From an archaeon (GTDB lineage Archaea; Nanobdellota; Nanobdellia; Pacearchaeales; GW2011-AR1), in assembly GCA_037134055.1 (NCBI GenBank), contig JBAXMY010000001.1, positions 1 to 31,665 of the forward strand: a stretch of DNA of 31,665 bases. Direction: 5' to 3'. The notes under the pieces were generated by a model. The model did no database searches and had not been told where the DNA came from. It saw nothing but the letters and a program-made list of their open reading frames with translations. Shown here one piece after another: positions 2,574 to 21,619 of the stretch (the stretch's first letter is position 1; the number at the start of each line of letters is the position of its first letter). Both the position numbers and the translations under genes were made by a program.

Positions 2574-3260
2574 ATGAAAAAGAGTGTTCTTCTTGTATGT
2601 ATCATACTTTCTCTTTTAACTCTAAGTCTCTTTTCCAATTTTGCTCATGCAGCTACCACCCCCTCATCTTCCCAAGAGCTGATTTCCAATCAGCTTGGAA
2701 TAGATCCTGCATCCATACCTCAAAGTCCAGAAGACATTAAAGACAAATATCTTAACCAAGAATGGGGGAAAATTATTGACAGCACACCCATAATTGGTCC
2801 AGTTAATATATTTCTAAAAACAAATGACTCCGCCCTATTTGTAGAATACTTCCTTTTTGCTGAAGCATATACTTTCACACTAACGTTCATTCTTATTTTT
2901 GTTTTCTGGCTCTTCGCAATTACATTAACCTCTGACTTGCTGAGAGCTTCTGGATTCCTCAAAGGTGGAGTTTCGCTGTTTGTTGGACTCGGAGTAGCAG
3001 TTATAATCGCACAAATCGGATTACTAAGATTCATCACCTCTGGAATTATCAACTTCATAACTAGGCAAGAAAATGTATGGTGGAGAATAGTTCTCTGGAT
3101 AATCATACTTGTAGCGATCATAGCATTCTACTATCTGAAAAAACTTATAGCAGATTACCTACTTAAGGCAAGAACTGAAGATCAGAAAGCATCCGTAGAA
3201 AGAAGGGTGAAGAAAATCGAGATAACTGAGGAAAGTCAGAAAAAAGCAGAGAAATTATAA
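2574..3260 (+). CDS. Membrane protein: signal peptide, short external domain, three TM helices, charged tail
   Basis: 228-aa ORF beginning MKKSV...FAHA; hydrophobic segments in the C-terminal half. Confidence 0.85.
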   Translation: MKKSVLLVCIILSLLTLSLFSNFAHAATTPSSSQELISNQLGIDPASIPQSPEDIKDKYLNQEWGKIIDSTPIIGPVNIFLKTNDSALFVEYFLFAEAYTFTLTFILIFVFWLFAITLTSDLLRASGFLKGGVSLFVGLGVAVIIAQIGLLRFITSGIINFITRQENVWWRIVLWIIILVAIIAFYYLKKLIADYLLKARTEDQKASVERRVKKIEITEESQKKAEKL

Positions 3261-3896
3261 CTACTTAGACTCTCCAGACAAAGACTGCATCATCCTTCTC
3301 ATTATGCCTGAGCTAATCCCTCTCTCAGTTCCTTCAGCCATGGCTTCCTCTTTCTCTGCAGTTTGTTTTGCAAAACTTGTAAGATTCAAAATAATCATAA
3401 ATGCCAAAACAATTACCACTAAAATCAGTATTAAGTTAAATAAATCGTACTGCTGTAAAAATGTTACAAACCTACCTAAATCAAATAGGGTTTCTGCCGC
3501 AGTTAGAAAACCCCCAGTCATTCCAATGAGGGATGTAATCAGAAAAGAAAGTAGCCAAACAAGCCCATTTTTATTAAATATGAGTTGTGCTAAAACTTTT
3601 ATAAGAACGATAGCCATAGCCCAGAGGCAAACGAGAATTACAAACATACTTAATTTCATATCATAATTATTCAAACCAAAGAAAATTGCTGAGATTACTC
3701 TAAGTGACTCAGGTACCTGGAGATCATAGCTCATTACCTTATTCGAACCATCTCTAAATCCTAAGGTTGGAGAAGCACTTGTACCTGCACTTGTTGTGTC
3801 CAGAGGCACAACATCCGCATCCTGTCCAACAATGTCTGCTGACACCATTCCCAGCAAAAGCACAAGGAACACCAGTGCAAAAACGCTCTTTTTCAT
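3261..3896 (-). CDS. Membrane protein (probable paralog of 2574..3260)
   Basis: 211-aa ORF beginning MKKSV...MVSA; same TM layout; its stop abuts the convergent stop with no gap. Confidence 0.85.
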   Translation of the reverse strand: MKKSVFALVFLVLLLGMVSADIVGQDADVVPLDTTSAGTSASPTLGFRDGSNKVMSYDLQVPESLRVISAIFFGLNNYDMKLSMFVILVCLWAMAIVLIKVLAQLIFNKNGLVWLLSFLITSLIGMTGGFLTAAETLFDLGRFVTFLQQYDLFNLILILVVIVLAFMIILNLTSFAKQTAEKEEAMAEGTERGISSGIMRRMMQSLSGESK

Positions 3897-3918
3897 ACCA
3901 TCTATAAAATAATCTAAT

Positions 3919-4149
3919 TTAAATTACTTTCGTGCCCGTTCCCATTGCCTTTTTCTTTCTTTCCTCTGCCAATCTAATAAGAATTGCTCTACCTTCCTCG
4001 CTAATTTCTAAATTCTTATAAAATCGAGCAGCCATGTCAAACTGCGCGTTGATAAAGGTTGTGTGTTCTTCTTTCCAGCCATCTGGATTTGCCTTCACAA
4101 ATTCTGCCCATCTTTCAACCTGTTCCATGTGCGATTTATCTCTTGCCAT
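3919..4149 (-). CDS. Small helical protein coupled to the upstream nucleotidyltransferase (possible TA partner)
   Basis: 76 aa; ATG lies 1 nt after the stop of 4151..4711. Confidence 0.75.
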   Translation of the reverse strand: MARDKSHMEQVERWAEFVKANPDGWKEEHTTFINAQFDMAARFYKNLEISEEGRAILIRLAEERKKKAMGTGTKVI

Positions 4150-4150
4150 T

Positions 4151-4711
4151 TTAATTTAACCTCAACTTTCGTATTTTATCTTTTACATCATTTATAAGTT
4201 TTTCATCTAGCTTGTCCTTATAAATTATTCTCAAATGTCTTGCATCCTCCATATCCTTATCAGACTTAAGTAGCTCTTCCTTAAATGCAATATTACTTTC
4301 GATTGTTGAAAACCACACATCTAGTCTGGTAAATGGGAATTTCTGTCGCATTTTTATCTGCATCTCATCCAATTCATCTTTTGCAAACTTAACCTCCATC
4401 TCGGGAGGAAATGTTGTGCCCTTTCTGACATATCTAACGCTTATCCCCCTATTCAAATAATCATACACCTCTTCTGGAATTGAACTCTGTAGGCAATCAA
4501 ACTTCTTTTTCAACTCCGAATGTATGATGAGAAATTTTGATAAATCTACCTTTTCCATAATCATGTCTATATCTTCAGTTCCTCTTGTTCTTGCATGAGC
4601 TATTGCAACAAATCCGGAAACAATAATATATTTTGCATGTTTATTAACTATATCGCAAAAAGAAGTCGTAAACTCATCCAATATATTTCGGTCACCTATC
4701 TGTCTTTCCAT
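4151..4711 (-). CDS. Minimal pol-beta-superfamily nucleotidyltransferase
   Basis: YIIVSGFVAIAHARTRGTEDIDMI fits the hG[GS]xAxxxxGxxRxTxDhD signature; AATATATA at -29. Confidence 0.75.
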   Translation of the reverse strand: MERQIGDRNILDEFTTSFCDIVNKHAKYIIVSGFVAIAHARTRGTEDIDMIMEKVDLSKFLIIHSELKKKFDCLQSSIPEEVYDYLNRGISVRYVRKGTTFPPEMEVKFAKDELDEMQIKMRQKFPFTRLDVWFSTIESNIAFKEELLKSDKDMEDARHLRIIYKDKLDEKLINDVKDKIRKLRLN

Positions 4712-6299: not shown

Positions 6300-7266
6300 G
6301 CTTATGAGCCTTTCTTGAACGCCAGAAATAGAAAAATCCTGCAATTAGGCATGCAACAATCAGAACGATGTAGCTTCCCCCGGTATTTGACGCATCAGAC
6401 ACTACAAACCCAGTAAAATTGCCCATAAAAAACAACAAAGAAAAAGAAACAAAGAAGATTGCAGCCGTAGCAGCAATTTTCTCCAAACCCTGTCGTTTAG
6501 TACTTGTTTGCTCCCTTCTTTCAGGCATGCCATAAATGGGATCCGCTCTAAAATATCTATATCTCAGCTCCTTATCAGACATTTCAAATAATTCGGGGAG
6601 TTTTACCTTTGACAAATCCAGTTTTGATGCGTATTTGTAAGGCCTATAATGGATAAGCATCCTATTTCGCACATCCACATCTTCCTCAAAACCCATCGCA
6701 CGTGCAACATCTGAAAGTTGTTCTGCCAATTTTTCATTTCCACCCTTTCTTGCCTCACCCACCGTCTTTAAAAGAACACGATATTTATTTCTGATAAATG
6801 AAGAGCCACGTTCATTCAAAACCTTACCGAGAGAGTCATAAACTCTATCGAATGAGGGCTCACCATTCGGAAATAGTTTCTTTCTTTTTTCTTCAGGTAA
6901 TCCTAGATAAGCTATTTTTCTCCCAACAAATCCCAGAAACTCTTCAGAATGAAGTTCCTTAGTATTGATATAATGCCCAAGATTACCTACTTTCTTTGCT
7001 CTGACAAAATGTGCCAGCTCTTCACCCATTGATTCCGTAACATCTCCAACACCCATTTCACGATTAACTGCAATTCTATTCTTTACCATGTTGTAGTCCA
7101 TTACTTTTTTCTTACTAAACACCAATTTTGGAAACTGATTCTCTGGAATGCCAAATTCCTGGGAAAATATTGCTTTCTGTTCATCATACACCCTTTGGAC
7201 AAATGCCTTGCCTTTATTATTTAACTTAGAAATTGGCTTACTGCCTTTAATAAAATCTTCTTCCAT
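6295..7266 (-). CDS. EExxH zincin-like domain protein with C-terminal two-TM tail
   Basis: E82-E-L-A-H86, S-E-E109-F, H206-x-x-x-Y210; homologous by eye to the C-terminus of 9931..13689. Tail: LEKIAA...GNFTGFVV...FFYFWR. TATTTATA at -29. Confidence 0.85.
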   Translation of the reverse strand: MEEDFIKGSKPISKLNNKGKAFVQRVYDEQKAIFSQEFGIPENQFPKLVFSKKKVMDYNMVKNRIAVNREMGVGDVTESMGEELAHFVRAKKVGNLGHYINTKELHSEEFLGFVGRKIAYLGLPEEKRKKLFPNGEPSFDRVYDSLGKVLNERGSSFIRNKYRVLLKTVGEARKGGNEKLAEQLSDVARAMGFEEDVDVRNRMLIHYRPYKYASKLDLSKVKLPELFEMSDKELRYRYFRADPIYGMPERREQTSTKRQGLEKIAATAAIFFVSFSLLFFMGNFTGFVVSDASNTGGSYIVLIVACLIAGFFYFWRSRKAHKL

Positions 7267-8400: not shown

Positions 8401-8652
8401 CTAGTTATGTCTCCTGTCTTTTCTGTTCAATTCGGCAAGAGTTGCGGAAGCAATTATTGCAGAACCGAGAGTTGCAATTTCATAAAAACTACCCATTCCC
8501 CTATGATTATATACATTGCCAATGGAATACTTTGCACCTTCAACGGGAGAAGAGTCTCTAATCGTATTAACCACCCTAACTGCCAAATCTACCGTTCCGC
8601 AAGCTATGCTAAGGCCTATAACCGTTGCAGCCAATGTTTTTCCTAGTCCCAT
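8401..8652 (-). CDS. Small protein with two hydrophobic helices (paralog of 8778..9038)
   Basis: 83 aa; GTVDLAVRVVN...YNHRG; AGGA 5 nt before the ATG and TTTAAATA further upstream. Confidence 0.75.
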   Translation of the reverse strand: MGLGKTLAATVIGLSIACGTVDLAVRVVNTIRDSSPVEGAKYSIGNVYNHRGMGSFYEIATLGSAIIASATLAELNRKDRRHN

Positions 8653-8777
8653 GTTTTTCCTATAAAAATCTCACTAAATGCCAATATTTAAACCTTTCTA
8701 ATTGTTACCACCACGGAGTAACATGATATATGAATATTATTAAATTGGATAAAAAATATAAAAAATTAAAGAATCGT

Positions 8778-19018: not shown

Positions 19019-19714
19019 TCAACCAGATTCCCACGCTGATTGATTCGCACCAAGTAACTCTCTTCTAGCCCTTACCAACTGGGGATGTGTTTGAATTAAT
19101 TTATAATAGTTTTTAACTAATCTTGGACAATCCTCCATAAACTGGAGATGATTGTCATACCTAATTGCATAGGGGCATGGCTCATCAAATTTCAAATGTT
19201 GTCCAGCAAGAACAACTCTTGTTTGATAGTCCGGTCCGAGGGTTTTAAAGAATTTGTCATACAAATCCCAAACGGGCATCTCCGGAGCCGCCAATTCTTG
19301 TTCCATCCAACTTTCCCCAGAATCGTATTTCTCGATGCTAATTGAGCTGCAATTGGCAACCTGAACTAACAATATCTTCCTGCCTTGCCTTTCTGCTGCA
19401 TGAGCTAATTTTTTTGTAATCTCTAGAGTGCTTGCTTCTAATCCAGAACCCTGGACTAAATACATATCGTGTTCCACATGCTCCAAAAACTTCTGTCTAT
19501 CCTGATCACTTCCTTTTAATTGCATTCCGTCATGCCTCAAAGTGCATGTATCATTGTAAAACTCTTTCACATCGAAAGTAAAATTAGACTCCTGGAATGC
19601 ATCGAGAAGCTGTTGATTTTGTGACAGACATGTAGGCACATCATCTCCATCCACCGTATTCAAATTATTCAAGAAAATTCCGAAGGAAGGAGTTATGATT
19701 CTTTCTTTAGCCAT
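19019..19714 (-). CDS. Hypothetical protein
   Basis: 231-aa ATG ORF, co-oriented with and 10 nt from the kinase gene. Confidence 0.75.
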   Translation of the reverse strand: MAKERIITPSFGIFLNNLNTVDGDDVPTCLSQNQQLLDAFQESNFTFDVKEFYNDTCTLRHDGMQLKGSDQDRQKFLEHVEHDMYLVQGSGLEASTLEITKKLAHAAERQGRKILLVQVANCSSISIEKYDSGESWMEQELAAPEMPVWDLYDKFFKTLGPDYQTRVVLAGQHLKFDEPCPYAIRYDNHLQFMEDCPRLVKNYYKLIQTHPQLVRARRELLGANQSAWESG

Positions 19715-20129
19715 ACACTATAGAATTCCTGGACAGACTTAACAATTATCAATATATTTCCATACCTCGCTATCCTAGTCTATTCCAACTATGCTCGGCT
19801 ATTCGAAATATGGAAGCATATTTCGTATATCTTGTCTTCGTCTAATCCTACAATGTAAACGAACTTTCGCCCACTAATTAATAAAAGATGAGGTGAAAGT
19901 TAGGTCAACCTGCTGATTTTCGAACTAAGAGAACAATTCTGGAAGAATTGAGATAGATACCTCTTATGAGAGATTAACCGACTTCCACAGAGAAGCGCGT
20001 GTGTGAACTAAGAGCCACGCGAGGTATAATTTACTTGAAGAGCTGTTTCGAGCGTAATCGCATTATTTATTAGAATTTATGGCTGGCGAACAATTAGGGT
20101 GGGGGACGGCGCACGCTGTTTTTGGTTAG
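19715..20129. other. Structured non-coding flank (left)
   Basis: No ORF of meaningful length. Perfect hairpins at 19804-19825 (9 bp) and 19934-19950 (7 bp), CGCGTG/CACGCG at 19996-20021, and direct repeat GAACTAAGAG at 19922 and 20005. Confidence 0.6.
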
Positions 20130-21004
20130 TTATTTCCTTTTGAAATAGATAAAACTAGCTATCAAACCAATTGTAAATAAAATTCCGCCTGTCAAATTAC
20201 TCGATGTTTGATTTAAACTGGCAATTACATTACCAGTTATATTTGAAGATAAAAAAAATAAACCTGCGATGAGTCCTGTAACGGCAATTATAGAAAGAAA
20301 GTGAGATGCTAAATTTGCATTTTTCATTCCCACCTTGCGCTTTCTTTCATCTATCGCCTCTTTCATTCTTCTAACTTGTAACAAACCACTGTCTATTCTT
20401 TTTTCTAGTTTTTCATTCTCTTTTCTTCCATCTGCAGTTTGTGGTAAAAGATTAATCGTGTTTATAGCATGTTCATAGCAGTATAGCGCTTTGTTAAGGC
20501 GTCCTTGATCCATGTAACGTTCTCCAGCATAACAATAGAAGCCTGGTGTAGATTGGCTTTTTTTCATTTCGAGTCTTTGGGCTTCGACGAGGTCGTTATC
20601 CGCACCTTTTGTTTTTTCGAGTTTTTCAAGAATTCTTCTAAAGAAACCTTTTTGTATCCCAACTAGCTCATCCGAACTACTGACATTATACGTAGGATTA
20701 GCACTGTCTAAATCATGGTAGCTATGCCTTCTATGTTCTGCTCTTCGAAGCTCTCTTCCAAGTTTTTGTCTGTCATAAAGGTTCAATTCCTGCGGGTCAA
20801 TTGATTTTAAATGGTTCACGGCATTATCTGTAAACTCTTGTGAAAAATATGGCATATCTTTGGCCTCTTTAATTAATTTCCTAACTCGAGGAGATAACCT
20901 TTTTTCTTTTTTATTCATCTCTTTTATAGCAATCATCGATTTAAATTCTTTTGCAAGCGCGCCGTCGGGTGGGGGTTGGTAAATACTGAGCCAGCCATAA
21001 ATTC
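20073..21004. repeat. Inverted repeats flanking the 20130 gene
   Basis: GAATTTATGGCTGGC (20073-20087) and its exact reverse complement (20990-21004); GACGGCGC (20105-20112) and GCGCCGTC (20959-20966); GGGTGGGGG present as a direct repeat at 20097 and 20967. Confidence 0.85.
20130..20918 (-). CDS. Helical (TPR-like) protein with C-terminal two-TM NITGNVI tail
   Basis: AATTTAAA at -29 favours ATG 20918 (MNKKEK). YAGERYMDQGRLNKALYCYEHAI is TPR-like. The tail resembles that of 6295..7266. Confidence 0.85.
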   Translation of the reverse strand: MNKKEKRLSPRVRKLIKEAKDMPYFSQEFTDNAVNHLKSIDPQELNLYDRQKLGRELRRAEHRRHSYHDLDSANPTYNVSSSDELVGIQKGFFRRILEKLEKTKGADNDLVEAQRLEMKKSQSTPGFYCYAGERYMDQGRLNKALYCYEHAINTINLLPQTADGRKENEKLEKRIDSGLLQVRRMKEAIDERKRKVGMKNANLASHFLSIIAVTGLIAGLFFLSSNITGNVIASLNQTSSNLTGGILFTIGLIASFIYFKRK

Positions 21005-21292
21005 CTATTCGTTCTAGTGCGATTTTGTTTAAGCATGATTAGACGTCAGAGCGTCGTCCGCTTTCCGTCCGCTTAAACGAAGCGAGAAACTAAAGCTCGA
21101 AAGTTTTTCTTGCAGGAAGAAAAAGCCGTAGGCTAAATTCTACTTTCGGTTAATCACCATTAACCGCCCTTTTGATGACAAATTTAAAATCTAAAGGCGC
21201 CGATGCCGAGCGCGTTCGGCGCTTCGCGCCTCACTTACTATTGAGGCTATTTTTTTTTGACGTCACAATAGCCAAAAACTATTTTTCTTTTT
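20937..21292. other. Structured GC-rich non-coding flank (right), MITE/REP-like or ncRNA
   Basis: Hairpins at 21104-21124, 21124-21134, 21147-21166, 21205-21220, 21218-21230, 21229-21246 and 21245-21273; CGTCCGCTT tandem at 21055 and 21066. Confidence 0.6.
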
Positions 21293-21598
21293 TTACATGT
21301 ACATTACAAGGCCAGTCATAGCAGCATAACCTAAAATTCTTAGAGATTCAATCTTCAAGAGATTGATTCTTCTATGCCTTGTTTGAGCAAGGCTCTCCTC
21401 ACTAACATTGTTTCTTTCTATTGGAGGTGACCAAAGATGAGAAGTCATATACATTGGTAAAAGAAGAGCAGCAGGATCCATATTCAATTCATAATCTCGA
21501 TTGTATTCATTCACAGTTTCTGCAAAATCCTTTGATTTTTTACTTACAACGCCTGCTAAAACCATGTTCTGAGTTATTGTATCGAACAAACTTGCCAT
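21293..21598 (-). CDS. Small hypothetical protein with hydrophobic C-terminus
   Basis: The track start at 21610 is TTG. ATG 21598 has TTTAAATA at -29. Confidence 0.7.
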   Translation of the reverse strand: MASLFDTITQNMVLAGVVSKKSKDFAETVNEYNRDYELNMDPAALLLPMYMTSHLWSPPIERNNVSEESLAQTRHRRINLLKIESLRILGYAAMTGLVMYM

Positions 21599-21619
21599 GA
21601 AAGTTGTCAAAAACGGGTA

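Follow-up and report, generated by a model that had tools for sequence, protein, structure and literature searches.

The window, the whole 31,665-nt stretch of archaeal DNA analysed here, stems from a genome assembly that is 68.6% complete and contains a protein gene at 20130 whose flanks (19715-20129 and 20937-21292) are indeed non-coding, as an earlier reading of the sequence alone had claimed. This sequence-only reading had also described five nested pairs of exact reverse complements around the gene, and all five are present at the positions it gave, while the span it assigned to the structure was too small: conserved sequence extends from approximately 19836 to approximately 21263. The features of the locus are the following.

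21203..21263, no strand: block 2, GC-rich module of hairpins at the outer edge of the locus, towards RsmB; multi-copy
21147..21166, no strand: block 1, palindrome CGGTTAAT-N4-ATTAACCG, junction of the linker end with the start of the 5' arm
20957..21155, minus: 5' arm, 81-87% identical to G128/G394 and 72-74% to G161/G234
21146-21155 (helix T), 21082-21104, 21018-24, 20990-21005 (helix A), 20957-20966 (helix B): helix halves of the 5' arm
21125-21133: local hairpin GCCGTAGGC in the 5' arm, with a cUACGg loop on the minus strand
21027-21034 paired with 21071-21078: second local hairpin in the 5' arm
20967..20975, plus: GGGTGGGGG in the 5' arm; reads CCCCCACCC on the minus strand and adjoins helix B
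20115..20956, minus: cargo compartment of 842 nt, one gene with its own TATA box
20940-20946: TATA box TTTAAAT, 25 nt upstream of the ATG at 20918
20130..20918, minus: cargo gene, 262 aa, with a weak match to TPR and a membrane tail of two helices at the C-terminus
20097..20105, plus: GGGTGGGGG in the 3' arm, in direct orientation relative to the copy in the 5' arm
19972..20114, minus: 3' arm, 83-87% identical to G128, G394 and G161, with pairing and compensatory changes
20105-20114 (helix B), 20072-20087 (helix A), 20056-62, 20033-53, 19972-19981 (helix T): helix halves of the 3' arm
19876..19971, minus: linker, a conserved extension after the 3' arm that aligns with G128, G232, G161, G281 and G061
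19836..19874, minus: apparent start of a second 5' arm, truncated (linker end + GATTAGACGA)

The whole unit consists of arms of about 200 and 145 nt and a linker of about 100 nt, and the arms zip into about 60 base pairs in five to eight separate helices; the helices all differ in sequence, and either arm forms local hairpins of its own. The linker adds two small covarying hairpins (19960-19972 and 19935-19949), and the stretch beyond it resembles what is left of an adjoining cassette: a comparison by eye with the G128 element shows agreement with its 5' junction at about 34 of 38 positions. The cargo gene would encode 268 aa if it started at the ATG at 20936; the start set by the gene caller equals that of P0002, and in homologs a TATA box at about -27 matches the position of the one in the window. 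Among the 200 family genomes compared, the two neighbouring genes (231 and 105 aa) are orphans, and a search for empty sites through synteny yielded none.

The blocks at the outer edge are conserved as well. The left half of the block 1 palindrome overlaps one half of the outermost of the five pairs, and block 1 is kept in G009, G018, G330, G232, G394, G161 and G281. Block 2 reads GGCGC-TTC-GCGCC, GCCTCA...TGAGGC and T9 in this order, aligns with the sequence adjoining the RsmB genes of G009 and G018, and in G281 also stands ahead of the first arm. It has extra copies, two on contig C23 and several each in G009 and G018; with this exception the flanks are single copy in the genome of the window and form no repeat family there. 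The motif GGGTGGGGG is kept in both arms of G128, G330 and G232.

The collinear chain of exactly the five pairs scores 36.2 bits and is the top chain of the 998-kb genome. The runner-up is the processing stem of the 16S rRNA with 34.9 bits, the only structure in the genome that is comparable; an insertion sequence with terminal repeats on a contaminant contig reaches 31.9, and the best chain of a mirror-repeat control 25.1. A single inverted match of 15 nt is commonplace, with about a dozen at spacings of 300-3000 nt in this genome, and local alignment of the flanks by itself gives p ~0.008. Co-folding of both arms yields -41 kcal/mol, whereas shuffled versions reach -13 +/- 4 (z = -6.9). The top chain score, this co-folding gain and a test in which arms were swapped between species (see below) together reject chance matches. 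The nested inverted matches are confirmed as real and as belonging to two conserved non-coding arms that base-pair with each other.

The arms are partners and not copies of one another. They had been thought possibly to be two diverged inverted copies of one element, and this did not hold, as a global alignment fails to match them as copies (z = 0.8); when the left flank is aligned, locally or globally, with the reverse-complemented right flank, only the short blocks emerge, and we rejected a diverged inverted duplication. A stand-alone structured RNA in each flank was likewise rejected because the arms folded singly are no better than shuffles (z = -0.6 and -0.9).

The suggestion that a long-range fold is under selection is borne out, because the helices show compensatory changes. 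Such changes occur at 27-28 of 92-98 consensus pairs, a count that comes from only six two-arm loci and hence from few, related sequences. Native arm pairs are 91.4% canonical, whereas pairs swapped between species have a mean of 84.8% and a maximum of 88.3%, with 0 of 265 swaps reaching the native value. In helix A a C-G pair has become U-A in G128; helix T occurs as C-G, U-A and A-U variants; in G330 AAUCGCA has changed to AAUUGCU with the partner changed to match, and in G394 helix B has gone from GCGC/GCGC to GAAA/AUUC. The local hairpin of the 5' arm covaries in 10 homologs. G232 has lost helix A, and G330 has it in interrupted form. G281 has an array of two cassettes, in which the arms around one cargo pair best with each other (-29.9 versus -13.4 kcal/mol). 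The helices are therefore maintained through compensatory substitutions.

A search of related genomes demonstrated that the arms are not private to the window: homologous arms are found in 16 of 401 genomes and 10 of 191 genera, the window's included, i.e. in 15 other genomes and 9 other genera of the same Nanoarchaeota family, at 72-87% identity. Both arms were recovered at six loci in six genera, where they enclose six unrelated cargos of 374-842 nt in either orientation: the TPR/tail-anchored protein of the window, a 141-aa membrane protein, two orphan proteins, a GNAT acetyltransferase and a CN-hydrolase. In G128, for example, arms that are 86-87% identical to those of the window enclose the 141-aa gene on the opposite strand, and the 15-mer is found again as an inverted pair. 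Many of the contigs with the element in G128, G394, G161, G330, G232 and G281 stop close to it. The innermost helix marks the limit of homology between the frames, exactly at its inner ends; in the window, similarity to the other five frames ends at 20114 and 20957. The arms are kept across genera while the cargo is replaced, with exact replacement boundaries, and since the same arms carry six different cargos the gene at 20130 is a passenger, as had been claimed. The further idea that its membrane tail has a part in cargo movement fails, in that other tail-bearing genes lack arms and other cargos lack the tail; the tail has no bearing on the frame.

The locus is syntenic with the RsmB-like gene, which it adjoins in the window, in G330 and in G281, and whose counterparts in G009 and G018 adjoin remnants of the locus. 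It can be tandemly arrayed, with arrays in G281 and G061 and with multi-gene cargos. Two genera with RsmB DNA of 66% identity share a 107-nt segment of the arm at 100% identity, and pieces of the arm have thus moved recently between genera. No recombinase lies in the window, in agreement with the sequence-only reading, and none was found beside the arrays in G281 and G061; tyrosine recombinases (PF00589) occur only on other contigs of the genome, among them a XerA-like one on contig C57, and Xer-like recombinases in every genome tested. The junctions of an invertible or excisable cassette, another of its proposals, were looked for as circular, inverted or empty forms, of which the contigs of four public runs contain none, at low coverage and in contigs that drop rare variants. 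The organism is present in freshwater samples (runs X1-X4).

The clamp formed by the arms probably acts as a folded single strand, most likely as RNA. RNA of the minus strand is favoured because the conserved hairpin keeps a cUNCGg tetraloop on that strand: C-G-closed UACG, UUCG and UGCG loops are present on the minus strand in five of the six two-arm frames, four of which have a UNCG-type loop at the same hairpin of the 5' arm, and the 5' arm copies of G234 and G281 have UUCG/UACG there. In the window the minus strand folds with -41 and the plus strand with -20 kcal/mol. The counts that could reveal a strand bias are nearly even (21 G-U versus 15 A-C), and the consensus energy is slightly better on the plus strand. 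Cargos can reach 3.8 kb, which makes a single RNA across both arms less plausible. On balance we put minus-strand RNA at about an even chance and consider single-stranded DNA possible. Known structured RNA families were rejected: the covariance models of Rfam 15 gave no match to the arms at the gathering threshold or at E <= 10, and the SRP and RNase P RNAs are found on other contigs of the genome.

The closest structural likeness within the genome is offered by the rRNA stems. The bulge-helix-bulge motif consists of 3-nt bulges flanking a 4-bp helix. In archaeal pre-rRNA, leader and trailer helices with this motif give rise to circular intermediates (PMC7038931, PMC10351888), and like the clamp these stems are long interrupted helices with halves hundreds to thousands of nucleotides apart that enclose a whole gene. 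The clamp differs in what it encloses, namely a protein gene that has a promoter of its own and may point either way. A strict search found no bulge-helix-bulge motif in register with the nested helices; relaxed forms are possible, since the same search also missed the motif in the genome's own 16S stem.

We consider it somewhat probable, at roughly 0.55, that the window holds one unit of a conserved chromosomal cassette platform of a Nanoarchaeota (DPANN) family, in which a bipartite clamp folds across an exchangeable cassette. Two non-coding arms and a linker would bracket a compartment of one or a few ordinary genes with their own promoters, and since the arms zip into helices, the ends of the compartment would be clamped together. 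The arms may double as recombination handles, the cassettes being swapped by recombination within or at the conserved arms; this could happen through homologous recombination with DNA that has been taken up, or through the action of a host Xer-type recombinase on the GATTAA/TTAATC ends. Candidate functions of the folded clamp are to process, insulate, stabilise or excise the cassette. A role in the expression of the cargo mRNA is not obvious, given a TATA box inside the clamp and cargos in either orientation.

The integron attC site is a local hairpin of 60-150 nt (R''-L''...L'-R') after each ORF, integron cassettes have one orientation and are mostly promoterless, and Xer bounding sites consist of two 11-bp arms and a spacer of 6-8 bp. 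The most serious rival to the clamped platform, which we hold to be possible if rather doubtful, is structure- and site-specific recombination of this kind, as in integron attC sites or Xer-dependent dif modules, with an XerA-like enzyme encoded elsewhere cutting the GATTAA/TTAATC palindrome of single-stranded arms to yield circular cassettes. Exact replacement boundaries, cargos in either orientation and tandem arrays would fit, as would Xer-like recombinases in all genomes tested and the repetition of TTAATC at the arm end, the junction and the conserved loop. The 5' junction palindrome, CGGTTAAT-N4-ATTAACCG with an 8-4-8 layout, is kept across genera; the 3' junction, however, is not palindromic, the four-run contigs show no circular junction or empty site (at low depth), and arms of about 200 nt with UNCG loops and local hairpins far exceed the core site of a recombinase. 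Archaea do possess integrons and CALINs, most of them without an adjacent integrase (Ghaly et al. 2022; PMC9668308), and there are real likenesses: a fixed chromosomal platform with arrays of small, exchangeable and unrelated accessory genes, horizontal exchange between lineages, and a non-coding element that, like attC, retains its fold by covariation more than its sequence (PMC9668308). Yet IntI and attI are absent from the window and from beside the arrays in G281 and G061, there are no attC-type R/L boxes, and in place of an attC-type local hairpin after the ORF long arms with hairpins of their own stand on opposite sides of the cargo, which lies in both orientations and has its own promoter (TATA at about -27). 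Dif modules are bounded by inverted sites, have no recombinase of their own and can be moved by the host Xer system (PMC6449649). The pdif modules of Acinetobacter plasmids (PMC6449649, PMC13141974) resemble the clamp units in carrying one or a few genes in either orientation between inverted bounding sites, in forming arrays and in lacking a recombinase, but they are plasmid-borne and bacterial, unlike the chromosomal archaeal locus, and their sites are 28-bp protein-binding sites whereas the clamp arms are long, base-pairing and covarying. The use of host Xer is presumed for pdif; a role for Xer at the clamp locus would be a guess from the palindromic junction.

A non-autonomous transposon (foldback element, MITE composite or mobile insertion cassette), with long imperfect terminal inverted repeats and a transposase elsewhere, is unlikely. 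Its inverted termini could be seen in GATTAACCGA / TCGGTTAATC around a passenger gene without transposase, and the distribution is patchy (16 of 401 genomes). Moreover GGGTGGGG directly adjoins the innermost repeat on either side, in the manner of an 8-bp target duplication (p ~1e-5 for the abutting direct repeat), but frames with different cargos share both, which makes them parts of the frame and not the scar of an insertion; for the same reason we rejected the idea that the cargo is itself a transposon, with GACGGCGC as its terminal repeats and GGGTGGGG as the target duplication. Neither terminus (19972, 21155) is flanked by a target-site duplication, the linker, block 1 and block 2 are conserved outside them at a locus syntenic with RsmB, there is one locus per genome, and in the window's genome the arms have no copies at other sites; helices that all differ in sequence and covary are not explained by the binding of one transposase. 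Less probable still is an invertible, phase-variable segment in which recombination between inverted repeats flips the enclosed gene. The perfect 15-bp inverted repeats recall such a switch, as does a cargo orientation that differs between genomes with respect to the arms, but the cargo promoters lie inside the repeats, so flipping would not switch the cargo; the cargos are different genes and not flips of one, an invertase has no need of multiple nested covarying helices, and the contigs of the four runs, at low depth, contain no inverted joints. We regard as very improbable, along with mere chance, a pairing of 5' UTR and 3' UTR that regulates the mRNAs of the cargo gene's family. Locus L018, a 31%-identical homolog without a match in Rfam, does have gene-hugging nested repeats of unrelated sequence, but pairing of this sort is missing from nine other homolog loci (z between -1.1 and +2.1), unrelated genes are found within the same arms, and a normal mRNA would be without the 5' arm because the TATA box lies within the innermost helix. 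An apparent chain at L039 was discarded, as it falls in neighbouring coding sequence and is absent from the minimum-free-energy fold. Locus L017 shows no difference from the window.

DPANN archaea are host-dependent organisms with minimal genomes, and to our knowledge the gain and shuffling of accessory genes in them is largely unexplained. The locus described here unites three features, a covarying frame around a genus-specific gene, a fixed chromosomal site and traces of recent exchange between genera, and arms that bracket different genes in at least six genera point to an undescribed way to hold and swap accessory genes. More tentatively, they may represent a new archaeal cassette class, in which a two-armed RNA or folded single-stranded DNA would clamp the cassette ends and mediate excision, circularisation or exchange; this would amount to an 'inside-out attC' with the cargo sitting in the loop. 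If the arms act as RNA, they would constitute a large, previously uncatalogued structured RNA with a cargo bay. If they serve as a folding handle for the exchange or processing of cassettes, they would form a device for gene capture unlike integrons, transposons and Xer modules, and would provide DPANN archaea with a platform for the acquisition of accessory genes that operates without an element-encoded recombinase.

The five exact reverse-complement pairs that the sequence-only reading had placed in nested order around the gene at 20130 (19972-21155) were each recovered at their coordinates, and the flanks (19715-20129 and 20937-21292) are non-coding, without a credible ORF. The genome to which the window belongs as contig C1 (G000) is that of a small-genome archaeon, 998 kb and 68.6% complete, with protein matches pointing to Nanoarchaeota, Woesearchaeota and Pacearchaeota. 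Since a single inverted match of 15 nt is not unusual in it (~12 such pairs spaced ≤3 kb), scoring was genome-wide and on whole nested chains, built of exact inverted matches in collinear order, against mirror (non-complement) repeats for control. The chain of the five pairs ranks first with 36.2 bits, followed by a stem around the 16S rRNA gene on contig C25 (34.9 bits; 16S identity confirmed) and an IS bounded by 20-nt terminal repeats on a contaminant contig of high GC (31.9 bits); the highest-scoring mirror chain reaches 25.1 bits. Joint folding of the two arms gains -41.1 kcal/mol on the cargo gene's strand versus -13.3 +/- 4.0 for shuffles, and only -19.7 kcal/mol on the opposite strand. 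The nested inverted structure is real and exceptional. The 16S gene (7100-8543 of C25) has a five-helix processing stem (6790-6968 / 8585-8706), where a strict search did not turn up a clean bulge-helix-bulge motif, and the IS contig (C139, 1704 nt, high GC, with an IS-type transposase ORF inside 20-nt perfect terminal repeats) is probably contamination of the bin.

The locus, read on the minus strand, comprises the following features:

Outside the 5' arm: block 1, a palindrome, CGGTTAAT-N4-ATTAACCG
21203-21263, also outside the 5' arm: block 2, a GC-rich hairpin module of ~55 nt, minus strand ...AAAATAGCC.CAAT...GGCGCGAAGCGCC...
20957-21155: 5' arm
20115-20956: cargo compartment
19972-20114: 3' arm
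19876-19971: linker directly after the 3' arm, the same as the linker between units
19836-19874: truncated start of another 5' arm, beyond the linker

Arms, linker and truncated second arm thus explain the whole 415 + 355 nt of 'non-coding flank'. The enclosed ORF (262 aa from the ATG at 20918, 268 aa from that at 20936) encodes a protein with a weak TPR match and a C-terminal two-helix membrane tail that is also present in several unrelated proteins of the genome.

Searched with ≤1 mismatch in 200 genomes of the same family, the 15-mer of the chain gave 16 matches beyond its own genome versus one for the reversed 15-mer. In G128, a genome of a different genus, it forms an inverted pair 570 nt apart within two arms that are 86-87% identical to those of the window and retain all blocks: the GATTAACCGA terminus, TTTCGAGC, AATCGCA, the 15-mer (U-A in place of C-G in both copies), CCCCCACCC in each arm, and GACGGCGCGC / GTGCGCCGTC. 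These arms hold a different gene on the opposite strand. Homologs of the 5' arm occur in 16 of 401 genomes and 10 of 191 genera, at one or two per genome, and six loci have both arms.

Cargos of the six loci with both arms (locus; cargo length; gene; orientation)
Window; 842 nt; TPR/tail gene; sense
G128; 509 nt; 141-aa membrane protein; antisense
G394; 374 nt; 113-aa orphan; sense
G161; 396 nt; 115-aa orphan; antisense
G330; 618 nt; GNAT acetyltransferase; sense
G232; 760 nt; carbon-nitrogen hydrolase; sense

These six complete units are mutually related and all come from metagenome-assembled genomes, in which several contigs end near the element. The loci are similar precisely up to the cargo-facing ends of the innermost helix and no further; in the window these ends are 20114 and 20957. 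The suggestion that the 20130 gene is a passenger is borne out by the recurrence of the arms around six different cargos; its membrane tail has no bearing on the frame, as other tail-bearing genes are without arms and the other cargos without a tail. The motif GGGTGGGG, which touches the innermost repeat on both sides, was considered as the target duplication that a cargo transposon would leave; since motif and innermost repeat are both retained where the cargo is another, they belong to the frame. Many contigs of other genomes begin or end within ~1 kb of an arm, as in G394:C43, G355:C23, G237:C45, G384:C13, G061:C4 and G330:C11, which fits assembly breaks from cargo polymorphism or inverted repeats.

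Aligned without their cargos, the six frames yield a consensus of 92-98 pairs, 27-28 of which carry compensatory double changes, so that the covariation expected of a long-range single-stranded DNA or RNA fold is present. Helix T, the outermost, has three different pairs at one position (C-G, U-A, A-U), and at the following position A-U gives way to G-C. In a separate helix, AAUUGCU/AGCAAUU replaces AAUCGCA/UGCGAUU in G330; a C-G of helix A is U-A in G128, and two G-C pairs of the innermost helix B are A-U in G394. Over 62 long-range pairs, canonical cells amount to 91.4% with native partners versus a mean of 84.8% (maximum 88.3%) when arms are swapped between species, and none of 265 derangements equals the native pairing. 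Each arm folded alone is not unusually stable, and in the tandem array of G281 the arms around one cargo reach -29.9 kcal/mol versus -13.4 for adjacent arms of neighbouring units. The covariation tool's own analysis finds two covarying pairs among ten homologs in a local 5'-arm hairpin, GUUUAAGC...GCUUAAAC. Sequences differ from helix to helix; hence it is complementarity that is conserved, not a repeated protein-binding motif. Alignment of one arm with the other does not bear out the earlier idea of two diverged inverted copies of one element. Judged from these alignments, the arms pair and selection evidently maintains the pairing.

Two further motifs deserve mention. CCCCCACCC (minus strand; 20097-20105 and 20967-20975) lies unpaired on both sides of an internal loop beside the innermost helix and is conserved at matching positions in G128, G330 and G232; in G281 unit 1 and in L018, a metagenome contig with a homolog of the window's cargo gene, a C-rich 3' copy pairs with a G-rich 5' partner instead. 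It could be a protein site or, on the plus strand, a split G-quadruplex. TTAATC/GATTAA recurs in all frames (e.g. window 21040-21048, 21146-21155, 19972-19981): at both arm termini, at the junction of block 1, and in the best-conserved loop of the 5' arm, where CGTYTAATC is nearly invariant among ten homologs; it is a candidate protein-binding site.

Blocks 1 and 2 adjoin the gene of an RsmB-like methyltransferase in the window, in G009 and in G018; the last two retain only this remnant. The G330 unit lies ~200-400 nt from RsmB; in G281 one gene separates RsmB from two units in tandem, the first arm preceded by block 2 and block 1. A conserved linker connects units. Four genes make up the cargo of the G061 unit, among them those of a methyltransferase, a PLP-dependent decarboxylase and an Lrp/AsnC regulator. 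Block 2, multi-copy in G000 (C23 4087-4142 and 5446-5504) and in other genomes, has copies in G009, G018 and G281 and is 83-93% conserved between genera; on C23 it stands 40-190 nt upstream of genes on the same strand. It may serve as a promoter with a 5' hairpin or, in reverse reading, as a terminator (hairpin + T9). The window genes adjoining the unit (19019-19714 and 21293-21610) are orphans with no homologs in 200 genomes of the family, and the 231-aa one of the two, just past the truncated second arm, may be a former cargo.

A stem specific to the window's gene was suggested by L018 (JGI Ga0268276_1003963, 10.9 kb, with seven intergenic gaps of 280-400 nt). Its cargo homolog, 31% identical, is enclosed by inverted repeats, nested and 13, 18 and 14-16 nt long, that are wholly unlike the window arms in sequence (arm-arm folding z = -8.6), and in both loci a TTTAAAT box ~25-27 nt upstream lies between innermost helix and ATG. 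An ordinary leaderless mRNA therefore begins within the stem in both; nine further homolog loci are without arm-arm pairing (z -1.1 to +2.1), and the outer arm parts of L018 belong to a small family of repeats, a third copy of which lies close by. Regulation particular to this gene is rejected because cargos differ between frames. The L018 family (X1-X3: 1213-1575, 2640-3000, 3808-4195) consists of mosaic blocks with a conserved G-rich 30-mer (GCGTGGGTGGTCGGGGGC...) whose strand is constant even where other blocks are inverted, and its arms may represent a distant second family of such frames. Among the cargo-protein homologs, P0003 and P0005 differ strongly in the N-terminal domain and share an identical 42-residue membrane tail, which suggests that tails are exchanged between genes.

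The clamp would act as a folded single strand. RNA is favoured, with a probability of about 0.5: a short conserved hairpin with C-G-closed UACG/UUCG/UGCG loops occurs in four of six frames and in the 5'-arm copies of G234 and G281, and the confinement of these UNCG-type loops to the strand running from 5' to 3' arm (window minus), together with better window folding there, was counted for RNA. Against RNA, or undecided, are own promoters and both orientations among the cargos, and one cargo 3.8 kb long; wobble and A-C counts are nearly even, and consensus energy is marginally better on the plus strand. To the same side were counted that a strict search gave no bulge-helix-bulge in register with the arm helices, that no Rfam family matches, and that the SRP and RNase P RNAs of these genomes are located elsewhere. 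Single-stranded DNA is the less probable medium.

A transposon is rejected on three counts: no target duplication, conserved and syntenic outside flanks, and single-copy occurrence. An invertible cassette acting as a switch fails because its promoters lie within the segment. As had been noted for the window, no recombinase adjoins the unit at the loci examined; the five genomes tested all have Xer-like tyrosine recombinases on other contigs, and no joints across the locus of the window showed up in contigs of four public runs, which are shallow. Closest among known systems are integron cassettes with attC sites (PMC9668308), dif modules dependent on Xer (PMC6449649) and the processing stems of pre-rRNA. 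By their defining features the locus is neither an integron nor, in a strict motif search, a stem of the pre-rRNA kind; as to Xer-type boundaries, its 5' junction is an 8-4-8 palindrome conserved across genera and its 3' junction is not palindromic. No description of a paired-arm cassette frame was found in the literature searched. What emerges is a frame in two conserved parts that base-pair with each other across a compartment for exchangeable genes; it occupies a syntenic site, is sometimes arrayed, and bears evidence of exchange between lineages. A 107-nt 3'-arm stretch is 100% identical in G281 and G330, which belong to different genera and have only 66% DNA identity in RsmB; with its abrupt ends on both sides, it is a recent recombination tract ending inside the arm. 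Cassettes would be swapped by recombination at the conserved arms.
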